Positions 1 to 625 of a stretch of 625 bases of DNA are shown piece by piece. The notes under the pieces were generated by a model. The model saw only the letters and a program-made list of their open reading frames with translations, was not told where the DNA came from and searched no databases. The DNA is from Escherichia coli (GTDB taxonomy: Bacteria; Pseudomonadota; Gammaproteobacteria; Enterobacterales; Enterobacteriaceae), in assembly GCF_003334255.1 (NCBI RefSeq), contig NZ_QOWU01000207.1. One strand, 5' to 3'. The position numbers were made by a program, and so were the translations under genes. Numbering within the stretch: position 1 is the first letter of the stretch; the number at the start of each line of letters is the position of its first letter.

Positions 1-43
1 GTTTTCAGCCCCCATCATCTGTTGAGTTTCGGGAGCCGCGGTT

Positions 44-277
44 TTGACGTTTTGCGGGGACCTGCTCTTTGTTCCCTCCGGTATTCACCATCACCTGTTT
101 GAGAACCTTCGCCGCATGGGGCATCACTGCCACGGCCTGACGCACCTGTCCTGGGCAGAACGCAAAATTTTTTACCGGGTTTTGGGTAAAAAATTTTGTG
201 GGCTGTTCATTTACCCTGGACAGGTGCGGCAGGTTGTGGCTGTATCAGCCCCCGGCGACAGGGGCTTAAACAGGTGA
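44..277 (+). CDS. Hypothetical ORF (77 aa, His/Cys-rich), probably spurious
   Basis: From the ORF track. It has a TTG start at 44 with a possible SD-like GGGAG at 31-35 (8-nt spacer) and a TGA stop at 275-277. The product matches no family I recognise, and the ORF is spanned by the 88-bp compound palindrome at 141-228, which is atypical for genuine coding sequence. Confidence 0.12.
   Translation: MTFCGDLLFVPSGIHHHLFENLRRMGHHCHGLTHLSWAERKIFYRVLGKKFCGLFIYPGQVRQVVAVSAPGDRGLNR
141..228. repeat. Compound imperfect palindrome: outer 15-bp GC-rich inverted repeat (14/15 matches) enclosing the inner AT-rich palindrome
   Basis: Read directly: 141-155 CGCACCTGTCCTGGG pairs with 214-228 CCCTGGACAGGTGCG, with one mismatch at 152/217 (T/T). 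The outer symmetry axis is offset by 4 bp from the inner one, leaving asymmetric internal loops at 156-160 (5 nt) and 201-213 (13 nt). The element can form an 88-nt extended hairpin or cruciform on either strand. Confidence 0.75.
163..198. repeat. Perfect 14-bp inverted repeat with 8-bp spacer: CAAAATTTTTTACC - GGGTTTTG - GGTAAAAAATTTTG
   Basis: Read directly: arm 163-176 is the exact reverse complement of arm 185-198, and all 14 pairs (163/198 through 176/185) are Watson-Crick. Spacer 177-184 is asymmetric. Each arm contains the self-complementary octamer AAAATTTT (164-171 and 190-197). Pair 161/200 (C-G) also matches, and 162/199 would be a G-U wobble in RNA. The arms are 11/14 A+T in an otherwise GC-moderate context. 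Confidence 0.9.
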
Positions 278-456
278 ATGGCACCGGACACAACAACGGG
301 CAGGGACCCGCCGCAACGACGTGAAGCGCGGTTTGCGAAACGGCGTTGCGCCTTACATCCCGGCGTCTTTTTGCCGGGATGCCTGGAGCGCAGGCCACGG
401 CGCGACAGAGGCGGCGCGACCGGAACGGTCGCTGCAAGCCCGGGGTTTTCACGCAT
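211..456 (-). CDS. Hypothetical ORF (81 aa, Arg-rich), probably spurious; the reading frame stays open upstream to 612
   Basis: From the ORF track, with ATG at 456-454. By my reading the same minus frame is open from 612 down to 211 but has no ATG, GTG or TTG upstream of 456. It overlaps ORFs in the other frames. No recognisable domain. Confidence 0.12.
   Translation of the reverse strand: MRENPGLAATVPVAPPLSRRGLRSRHPGKKTPGCKAQRRFANRASRRCGGSLPVVVSGAIHLFKPLSPGADTATTCRTCPG
247..266. repeat. Short stem-loop: 6-bp stem AGCCCC / GGGGCT with 8-nt loop
   Basis: Read directly: 247-252 pairs with 261-266; loop is 253-260. A stem this short has weak significance in GC-rich sequence. Confidence 0.4.
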
Positions 457-600
457 CGGACCGTAGCGACAGCCCGAAACCGCGCCAGCGGGTTCGGCGG
501 AGACTGGCGGGTGCGCCAGCAGCTGCCTGTCGGAGTCGGGCCTGACGACCGGATGCCGCCAGGCAGCCGGGAGCCGAAGGTGCGCCCGGCAGACAGGACA
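301..600. other. GC-rich block (about 71% GC by hand count) with several short stem-loops and no clear codon-position GC periodicity; candidate structured non-coding region
   Basis: Hand counts of GC by position modulo 3: 66/70/70% over 301-450 and 76/64/78% over 451-600, which is weak or absent periodicity. Stems seen: 312-318/344-350 (7 bp), 356-364/373-381 (9 bp), 416-422/426-432 (7 bp, loop GAA), 504-509/514-519 (6 bp, loop GGTG), 566-571/585-590 (6 bp). All three plus-strand frames and two minus-strand frames are open across 320-450, as expected for GC-rich non-coding DNA. GC falls to about 48% after position 600. Confidence 0.35.
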
Positions 601-612
601 ACACTGCAGTAG
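346..612 (+). CDS. Hypothetical ORF (88 aa, Arg-rich), probably spurious
   Basis: From the ORF track. It has a TTG start at 346 and a TAG stop at 610-612, with the frame open from 325. The product is Arg/Pro/Gly-rich, typical of out-of-frame reading of GC-rich DNA. Codon-position GC bias is only weak over 451-600 and absent over 301-450. Confidence 0.12.
   Translation: MRLTSRRLFAGMPGAQATARQRRRDRNGRCKPGVFTHRTVATARNRASGFGGDWRVRQQLPVGVGPDDRMPPGSREPKVRPADRTTLQ
356..381. repeat. 9-bp perfect inverted repeat / stem-loop with 8-nt T-rich loop (CATCCCGGC - GTCTTTTT - GCCGGGATG)
   Basis: Read directly: 356-364 pairs with 373-381 in 9 Watson-Crick pairs, 6 of them G-C. The loop 365-372 contains T5. 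No U-tract follows the stem on either strand, so it is not a canonical intrinsic terminator. Confidence 0.7.
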
Positions 613-625
613 TCAGAATCAGAGC

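Follow-up and report, generated by a model that had tools for sequence, protein, structure and literature searches.

Frpo-type promoters and the stretch under study

In its single-stranded form, the Frpo stem-loop of conjugative plasmids rebuilds −35 and −10 boxes and recruits the Escherichia coli RNA polymerase, and the RNA that is made can prime DNA synthesis (PMC9849209). The published Frpo is 328 nucleotides (nt) long. Frpo2, which lies upstream of ssb, was found to be needed in vivo for early expression of ssb and yfjA in transconjugants before conversion of the incoming DNA from single-stranded to double-stranded form, a step that turns this promoter off (PMC9849209). Here, we analysed a 625-nt stretch of E. 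coli DNA (assembly GCF_003334255.1, contig NZ_QOWU01000207.1), called the window below, in which a preliminary description had singled out a reading frame at positions 26-466 that is open for 147 codons except for a TGA followed immediately by an ATG. We conclude with high confidence that the window is one copy of a repeat of about 640 bp that heads the leading-region operons of F-like (IncF) plasmids, that its core (26-341) is a Frpo-type single-stranded DNA (ssDNA) promoter, and that the reading frame is a product of chance.

Thousands of Frpo homologues have been found in leading regions, where the genes always have the transferred strand (T-strand) as their template, and an anti-CRISPR driven by Frpo gave protection only from a leading-region position on the T-strand (PMC11541004). 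The elements ssi1-3 and the Frpos have been classified together as class 1 ssDNA promoters, and start sites on pESBL were confirmed by 5' rapid amplification of cDNA ends (PMC12672017). The names ssp1a and ssp1b have also been introduced, together with support for priming in vivo (bioRxiv 10.64898/2026.01.09.698686). Promoters of this type let conjugative resistance plasmids make SSB, PsiB and anti-defence proteins minutes after entry, before the second strand is made. The element that underlies the window is biologically important yet already described, and it offers no novelty: many sequenced plasmids match the window at 100% identity, and a copy that has been studied by experiment matches it at 96%.

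The window is a close relative of Frpo2 of F

Reference Frpo and ssi sequences, and that of the Frpo2-acrIIA4 construct, were taken from the supplementary tables of PMC11541004. F Frpo2 (also called ssp1b), which precedes ssb-yfjA-yfjB-psiB-psiA, was 96.2% identical to window positions 1-263, the part contained in the Frpo2-acrIIA4 construct. Like the element in the window, it lies directly upstream of ssb on the T-strand, and it has the same hairpin architecture. Over window positions 1-447/448, the copies in the F sequence NC_002483 were 93.6% (the one upstream of ssb) and 90.5% identical to the window. F Frpo2 differs from it by an insertion of TCA at 223, between the −35 and −10 regions, by a missing C at 249 and by a missing base at 292; moreover, the repeat of the window runs to about position 638, whereas the F Frpo2 copy stops at 447.

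F ssiD (Frpo or Frpo1, ssp1a; D90178) was 87.8% identical over window positions 9-355 (347 nt). D90178 is reportedly the original Frpo of Masai and Arai (1997). It shares with the window the strand, the hairpin, the conserved CCCTGGAC/GTCCGGGG helix and the AT-rich apical helix. The window lies upstream of ssb and Frpo1 upstream of ygeA/ygeB. Between the −35 and −10 regions the two differ in sequence (GGCGGAGACGG as against GGTGCGGCAGG), with poorer pairing in Frpo1, and 1-nt insertions or deletions (indels) separate them at 125, 156 and 221.

More distant relatives were 68-72% identical to the window in Serratia and in the insect-metagenome Frpo'. The class 1 elements ssi1-3/Frpo1-3 of ColIb-P9 (IncI1) were 76-78% identical in an apical stretch of about 100-115 nt that takes in the loop, the −35 helix and a CCCCCGG block, and they share with the window a downstream hairpin and the GGAGCGC...CGGCGCGAC motif. 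Their lower stem, in contrast, could not be aligned with that of the window (26-100 and 266-341), and overall identity was about 57-60% with many indels.

The class 2 and class 3 elements ssp2 and ssp3 of F and pESBL follow the same principle and occupy the same genomic neighbourhood as the element in the window. They reportedly lack sequence homology to Frpo (PMC12672017), and we set them apart here by their descriptions; only ssp2 was reported to stall complementary-strand synthesis (bioRxiv 10.64898/2026.01.09.698686). The window had no sequence similarity to any phage record searched. The minus-strand origins of filamentous phages and the single-strand origins (sso) of rolling-circle plasmids are known only for making primers; Frpo, in contrast, drives the synthesis of mRNA as well. 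Common to these origins and to the element in the window are a promoter-mimicking ssDNA hairpin, the host RNA polymerase and an RNA primer (PMC7690428).

The window lies upstream of ssb on the transferred strand of conjugative plasmids

At least 5000 plasmid records matched the window, at 23,337 places and with several places per record among the matches listed; these were mostly from Escherichia, Klebsiella and Salmonella, and mostly conjugative plasmids. Positions 8001-8625 of the IncFIA/FIB/FII plasmid NZ_CP024721 (L001) are 100% identical to the window and are flanked by a methyltransferase gene and by ssb. All genes of this region (ssb, DUF905, parB-like, psiB, hok, antirestriction and methylase) are on the minus strand of the window. 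The ATG of ssb lies 22 nt past window position 1 on that strand and is preceded by AGGAG.

The origin of transfer (oriT) and traM are located at the left in NZ_CP024721. There, TTTGCGTGGGGTGTGGTGCTTT, the nic-site sequence of the F oriT, was found on the plus strand of the window, 7.5 kb 5' of it, and the arrangement of nic and window was alike in three further plasmids (L004-L006) and, after strand correction, in F (L002). The nicked strand enters the recipient 5' to 3'. Since nic is on the same strand and 5' of the window, the plus strand is the T-strand and the template of the leading genes, and any transcript would have to be complementary to the T-strand and to run toward lower window coordinates.

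The repeat is present three times in NZ_CP024721, each time ahead of an operon, at 2605-3229, 8001-8625 and 11326-11938 (99.8%, 100% and 92.5% identical to the window, respectively). The direct-repeat unit spans window position 1 to about 638 (up to 8638 in NZ_CP024721). Two of these copies are 99.8% identical over 625 nt even though they are 5.4 kb apart, while the third is at 92.5%; this suggests that copies within one plasmid have been exchanged by gene conversion. For most plasmids, the copy from which the window originates is indistinguishable.

The hairpin fold is selected on the transferred strand

The preliminary description had mentioned in passing that the reading frame contains a palindrome. 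This palindrome is present and is the real functional feature of the stretch. Five nested inverted repeats (I6, I2, I4, I1 and I3) surround position 180, and positions 1-360 of the plus strand fold as DNA into one imperfect hairpin with a free energy of −110.1 kcal/mol (z = −11.6 against shuffled sequences), compared to −100.3 kcal/mol (z = −9.6) for the complementary minus strand. The hairpin occupies 26-341 on the transferred plus strand (316 nt, 123 pairs, 8 of them G·T) and consists of a 5' arm (26-176), the apical loop GGGTTTTG (177-184) and a 3' arm (185-341). Its homology, leading-region location, strand and stem-loop of about 300 nt are those of the class 1 Frpo/ssi elements.

We then examined covariation in 18 distinct homologues that were aligned, with the hairpin of the window projected onto the alignment columns. 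Standard pairs were found in 90.6% of the cells, compared to 40-47% when partners were shifted by 1-3 columns. Both partners had changed in 18 pairs, compared to 11.2 ± 1.8 in shuffles and 5-10 after such a shift, and cells with a double change numbered 64, compared to 23.8 ± 4.3 in shuffles, none of 500 of which reached 64. Many stem positions switch between G-C or A-T and G·T, and a G·T pair becomes an A·C mismatch on the complement. Indeed, the T-strand was more stable than its complement in all 21 sequences compared (the 18 homologues and the 3 ColIb-P9 copies), by 9-20 kcal/mol. From covariation and this uniform advantage in stability, we conclude that the hairpin fold is under selection on the T-strand.

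Within the hairpin, the blocks that vary least are in the lower stem (40-62 and 306-325), downstream of the predicted transcription start. They read GCGGTTTTGACGTTTTGCGGGGACCTGC on the 5' arm, where TTGAC is invariant, and GCAGGGACCCGCCGCAACGACG on the 3' arm; the ColIb-P9 copies lack them. The core promoter model does not account for their conservation.

An inverted repeat of this kind might instead form an RNA structure in a 5' untranslated region or an antisense RNA, or it might be a foldback element resembling a miniature inverted-repeat transposable element, or a replication or terminator signal. Good folds on both strands and the presence of 3-4 copies per plasmid would be in line with such an element, and additional roles are made plausible by the priming of DNA synthesis by Frpo RNA in vitro and by the ssp2 class, which acts as a replication roadblock. 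We nevertheless consider it improbable that one of these, and not an ssDNA promoter, is what the hairpin represents. A transcript from the predicted start would leave about half of the hairpin uncovered; neither transposase genes nor target-site duplications were associated with the copies; and the position upstream of co-oriented leading operons is fixed. Moreover, the window is nearly identical to elements whose deletion abolishes early expression of ssb and ygeA, and the stability advantage of the T-strand is consistent across homologues.

Predicted promoter anatomy and mode of action

The element in the window would be expected to be active only as ssDNA and to drive early (zygotic) expression, by analogy with its homologues on F and ColIb-P9, for which both properties are known. 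What has been described for these homologues suggests that, upon arrival of the T-strand in the recipient, the hairpin would mimic a duplex promoter. The host sigma-70 RNA polymerase would then bind it and transcribe ssb, psiB and other genes before a complementary strand exists, and the RNA may also prime synthesis of that strand. Conversion to duplex DNA would abolish the hairpin and thereby switch the promoter off.

In this scheme, the 3' arm would be the non-template arm and carry the promoter-like motifs, and the 5' arm would be the template arm, read by RNA polymerase toward position 1 and ssb. The role of the 5' arm is deduced from the strand assignment and from the published Frpo2 construct, which is limited to window positions 1-263 (PMC11541004). 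From the loop to the base of the 3' arm, the motifs are ordered UP-like, −35 and −10, in agreement with the description given in the same paper (PMC11541004, Fig. 2e legend). The A+T-rich helix GTAAAAAATTTTGT (186-199), which pairs with 162-175, would be the UP-like part; an UP element was reported for Frpo (PMC11541004). It is separated by an 8-nt bulge from TGGACA (217-222), a putative −35 hexamer that matches TTGACA at 5 of 6 positions and lies in the stem opposite TGTCCT (147-152). This part is well conserved: CCCTGGAC and its partner TGTCC(G/T)GGG are retained in the IncF, Serratia, insect-metagenome and ColIb-P9 homologues.

After a helix of 17-18 nt past the −35 hexamer comes CTGTATCAG (240-248), the candidate −10 region, and then a GC-rich helix of 5 bp. 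The candidate region is conserved and partly unpaired, and its match to TATAAT is weak (at most 3 of 6 positions). T241 is mismatched, ATCA (244-247) lies in an internal loop facing ATC (123-125), and T241, G242, T243, T245 and G248 are invariant across the 18 homologues. Transcription is predicted to start at 112-118 on the template arm, some 7 nt past the −10-like region, with the RNA in the sense of the minus strand, which would give a leader of about 135-140 nt ahead of ssb. This geometry is compatible with the working Frpo2 construct that ends at window position 263. Once the DNA is double-stranded, the 5' arm would face a non-template strand that reads AGGACA ... CAGTGATG in place of TGGACA ... 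CTGTATCAG, and these changed motifs agree with the reported loss of activity on conversion. A consensus sigma-70 scan of the duplex found no promoter, and the sole terminator-like site was at chance level.

An alternative promoter on the 5' arm, with TTGAGA (99-104) and CATCAC (122-127) reading toward the loop, was considered and rejected: the pairing partner of its −35 hexamer is missing from the functional Frpo2 construct, which ends at window position 263, and the AT-rich "UP" tract would come to lie downstream of it.

Several points weigh against an assignment of the window as a Frpo-type promoter with a chance reading frame. No canonical −10 box was found; the best candidates at canonical spacing, CTGTAT and TGTATC, match TATAAT at no more than 3 of 6 positions. 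Likewise, a relaxed −35/−10 scan of the T-strand of eight homologues gave no candidate that was both canonical and conserved in position. The positions proposed here for the promoter motifs and for the start of transcription are provisional. Promoter activity of this exact copy is deduced by analogy from F Frpo2, which has three more nucleotides between the −35 and −10 regions and one fewer at 249. The inserted TCA would form a bulge on the non-template arm and leave the helical spacing unchanged. Finally, the two open reading frames (ORFs) that make up the frame at 26-466 have counterparts in protein databases: the translation of the first matches phrog_31045 (function unknown) with an E value of 4e-48, and both translations are deposited as clusters of hypothetical proteins, with 61 and 80 members.

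The reading frame at 26-466 is a chance frame

The positions given in the preliminary description were exact when plus frame 2 was rechecked: its stops are TGA at 23-25, TGA at 275-277 and TAG at 464-466, and the ATG at 278-280 abuts the middle TGA. The openness of the frame does not exceed what chance would give. The window has an overall GC content of 62%, which rises from about 50% at its left to 73% at its right, and 94.6% of 5000 dinucleotide-preserving shuffles contained a frame of 147 or more codons that was interrupted by no more than one internal stop. Indeed, the longest open frames of the window are found in another frame, on the minus strand (138 codons without a stop, 202 with one stop). 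Coincidence, the explanation that the preliminary description had itself favoured, is backed by these shuffles and by the frameshifts, codon-position pattern, nonsynonymous-to-synonymous polymorphism ratios (pN/pS), family searches and lack of a recoding hairpin described below. Thus, the 147-codon frame with its TGA-ATG junction is a chance frame on the untranscribed sense of a GC-rich element, antisense to the whole operon structure of the leading region, and as a gene candidate it is without importance.

The junction is also explained by pairing in the hairpin, in which the TGA and the ATG are ordinary stem nucleotides. T275 pairs with A93 and G276 with C92, A277 is bulged, and A278, T279 and G280 pair with T91, A90 and C89, respectively. 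In other copies the junction reads GGTGTGTGG or GGTGTATGG and lacks the TGA, as against GGTGAATGG in the window, and these variants are compensated on the 5' arm by a change from TCACCT to TCACCC (columns 77/276 are CG in 10 and UA in 7 sequences).

The first ORF (44-277, plus strand) has a TTG start and encodes 77 amino acids, and the second (278-466, plus strand) has an ATG start and encodes 62; both are chance ORFs and not genes. Frameshifting indels were found in 17 of the 24 homologues compared with the frame, including copies that are 88-96% identical. In such close copies, 1-nt indels occur at 156, 168, 221, 249, 286, 292, 330 and 366; those at 286, 292, 330 and 366 fall within the second ORF, in copies that are 89-96% identical. 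The Serratia, insect and ColIb homologues have 8-13 frameshifting indels and extra stops in the frame. Variable columns were distributed as 32, 38 and 35 over codon positions 1, 2 and 3, with no third-position bias, and pN/pS was 0.95 for 26-277, 1.41 for 278-466 and 1.10 for the whole frame. In all six frames, pN/pS ranged from 0.44 to 1.53, with convincing constraint in none, the counts within 449-625 being small. A minus-strand ORF at 5-145 (5-211 in some records), considered as a leader peptide, had a pN/pS of 1.00 and was rejected.

The preliminary description had raised the possibility of a gene disrupted by a nonsense mutation, with uninterrupted orthologues elsewhere. This would fit with the copies in which GGTGTGTGG or GGTGTATGG replaces GGTGAATGG and the TGA is missing, with the deposition of translations of the first ORF as hypothetical proteins and their match to phrog_31045, and with the copies in L005, which are free of stops for 147 codons when read straight from the position aligned to 26. 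However, the L005 reading crosses three frameshifting indels relative to the window (156, 221 and 330), so that it does not give the same or an orthologous protein, and no conserved frame was found in the relatives, in which the frame is broken by indels. The pN/pS values, the even spread of variable sites over codon positions, the many frameshifts in the distant homologues and the orientation antisense to every gene of the region all argue against a pseudogene, which we regard as very improbable. Translations of the frame gave no match in Pfam, even at E values of up to 10, and none in NCBIfam.

Formally, protein homologues do exist in the databases, as clusters and as phrog_31045, although the preliminary description had looked to their absence as a test of the gene. 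The deposited proteins come from automatic ORF calling on this very stretch of nucleotides and provide no independent evidence. Calls by the NCBI Prokaryotic Genome Annotation Pipeline (PGAP) over the element are inconsistent, varying in strand and frame from record to record (equivalent to window positions 449-691 on the minus strand, 321-545 on the plus strand and 5-211 on the minus strand), and one longer cluster member carries the name "pilus protein." Searches of phage records with blastn and tblastn gave no match to the window or its ORFs; phrog_31045 thus probably stems from plasmid or prophage-like records outside the collection searched. Several NCBI/UniRef clusters and phrog_31045 are probably annotation artefacts on a non-coding element, a Frpo element on which automatic annotation repeatedly places mutually inconsistent "hypothetical proteins."

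That the TGA at 275-277 is recoded, by selenocysteine insertion or programmed read-through, to give a product of 146 amino acids has the in-frame TGA as its sole support and has a negligible probability, since the regions of 51 and 71 nt 3' of the TGA, where a hairpin like a selenocysteine insertion sequence (SECIS) had been suggested as a check, fold worse than shuffles (z = +1.85 and +1.02), neither the TGA nor the flanking frame is conserved, the TGA is paired with C92 and A93 in the hairpin, and a search of all Rfam families at E values of up to 10 found no SECIS or other recoding family. Sub-threshold Rfam matches to microRNA precursors merely reflect the long hairpin and were discarded, and a scan of the window for tRNA and transfer-messenger RNA found nothing.

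Features downstream of the hairpin

At about double the length of the published 328-nt Frpo, the repeat has an additional conserved part that is GC-rich. This flank (345 to about 638) contains excess structure in the segment 345-625 (z = −4.0 and −3.3). A second conserved hairpin, CATCCCGGC/GCCGGGATG (356-381, plus strand; inverted repeat I24 and centroid DNA fold), lies outside the 328-nt Frpo, and compensatory change has preserved its stem in the insect Frpo' and in ColIb-P9 Frpo1-3, where the sequence differs. It is followed by the 24-mer GGAGCGCAGGCCACGGCGCGACAG (385-408, plus strand), which is 95.8% identical in ColIb-P9 Frpo3 and occurs once per repeat copy at six loci.

A third, small hairpin, GCGCGACCG-GAA-CGGTCGCTGC (414-435, plus strand), has a loop that is flipped to GTTCC in some copies, which is the expected outcome of hairpin-mediated template switching. 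In the Klebsiella plasmid L004, the copies at 11636-11650 and 17112-17126 have GTTCC in place of GGAAC in this hairpin, and the motif matches on the opposite strand.

The distal GC-rich part (449-625, plus strand) belongs to the repeat of about 638 bp and is absent from the F copies, whose last position is 447/448. In the copies that have it, variation is confined to 8 of 177 columns, compared to 19-31% in the hairpin segments; this low variability could reflect strong constraint or recent homogenisation. Within this part, the stretch CATCGGACCGTAGC...GCCCGAAACCGCG...GGGTTCGGCGGAG resembles the 3' ends of "Frpo*" candidates, which represent a different class of promoter (PMC11541004).

The compensatory changes in the second hairpin, the near-invariance of the 24-mer across IncF and IncI plasmids, the "Frpo*" motifs and the low distal variability relative to the promoter hairpin led us to consider, as a tentative and rather doubtful proposal, that the flank forms a functional module of its own within ssDNA-promoter cassettes. 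If so, it might act as a stop or insulator for transcription from the upstream operon, as a stabiliser of the 3' end of the mRNA from that operon or as a signal during conversion of single-stranded to double-stranded DNA.

In L004, the third repeat copy is interrupted by a group II intron at 20574-22917, whose ltrA (21169-22836) is in the T-strand sense. The insertion lies at the equivalent of window position 585, adjoining an inverted repeat at 559-597, and accounts for the many Klebsiella and E. coli records that match the window only up to position 585.

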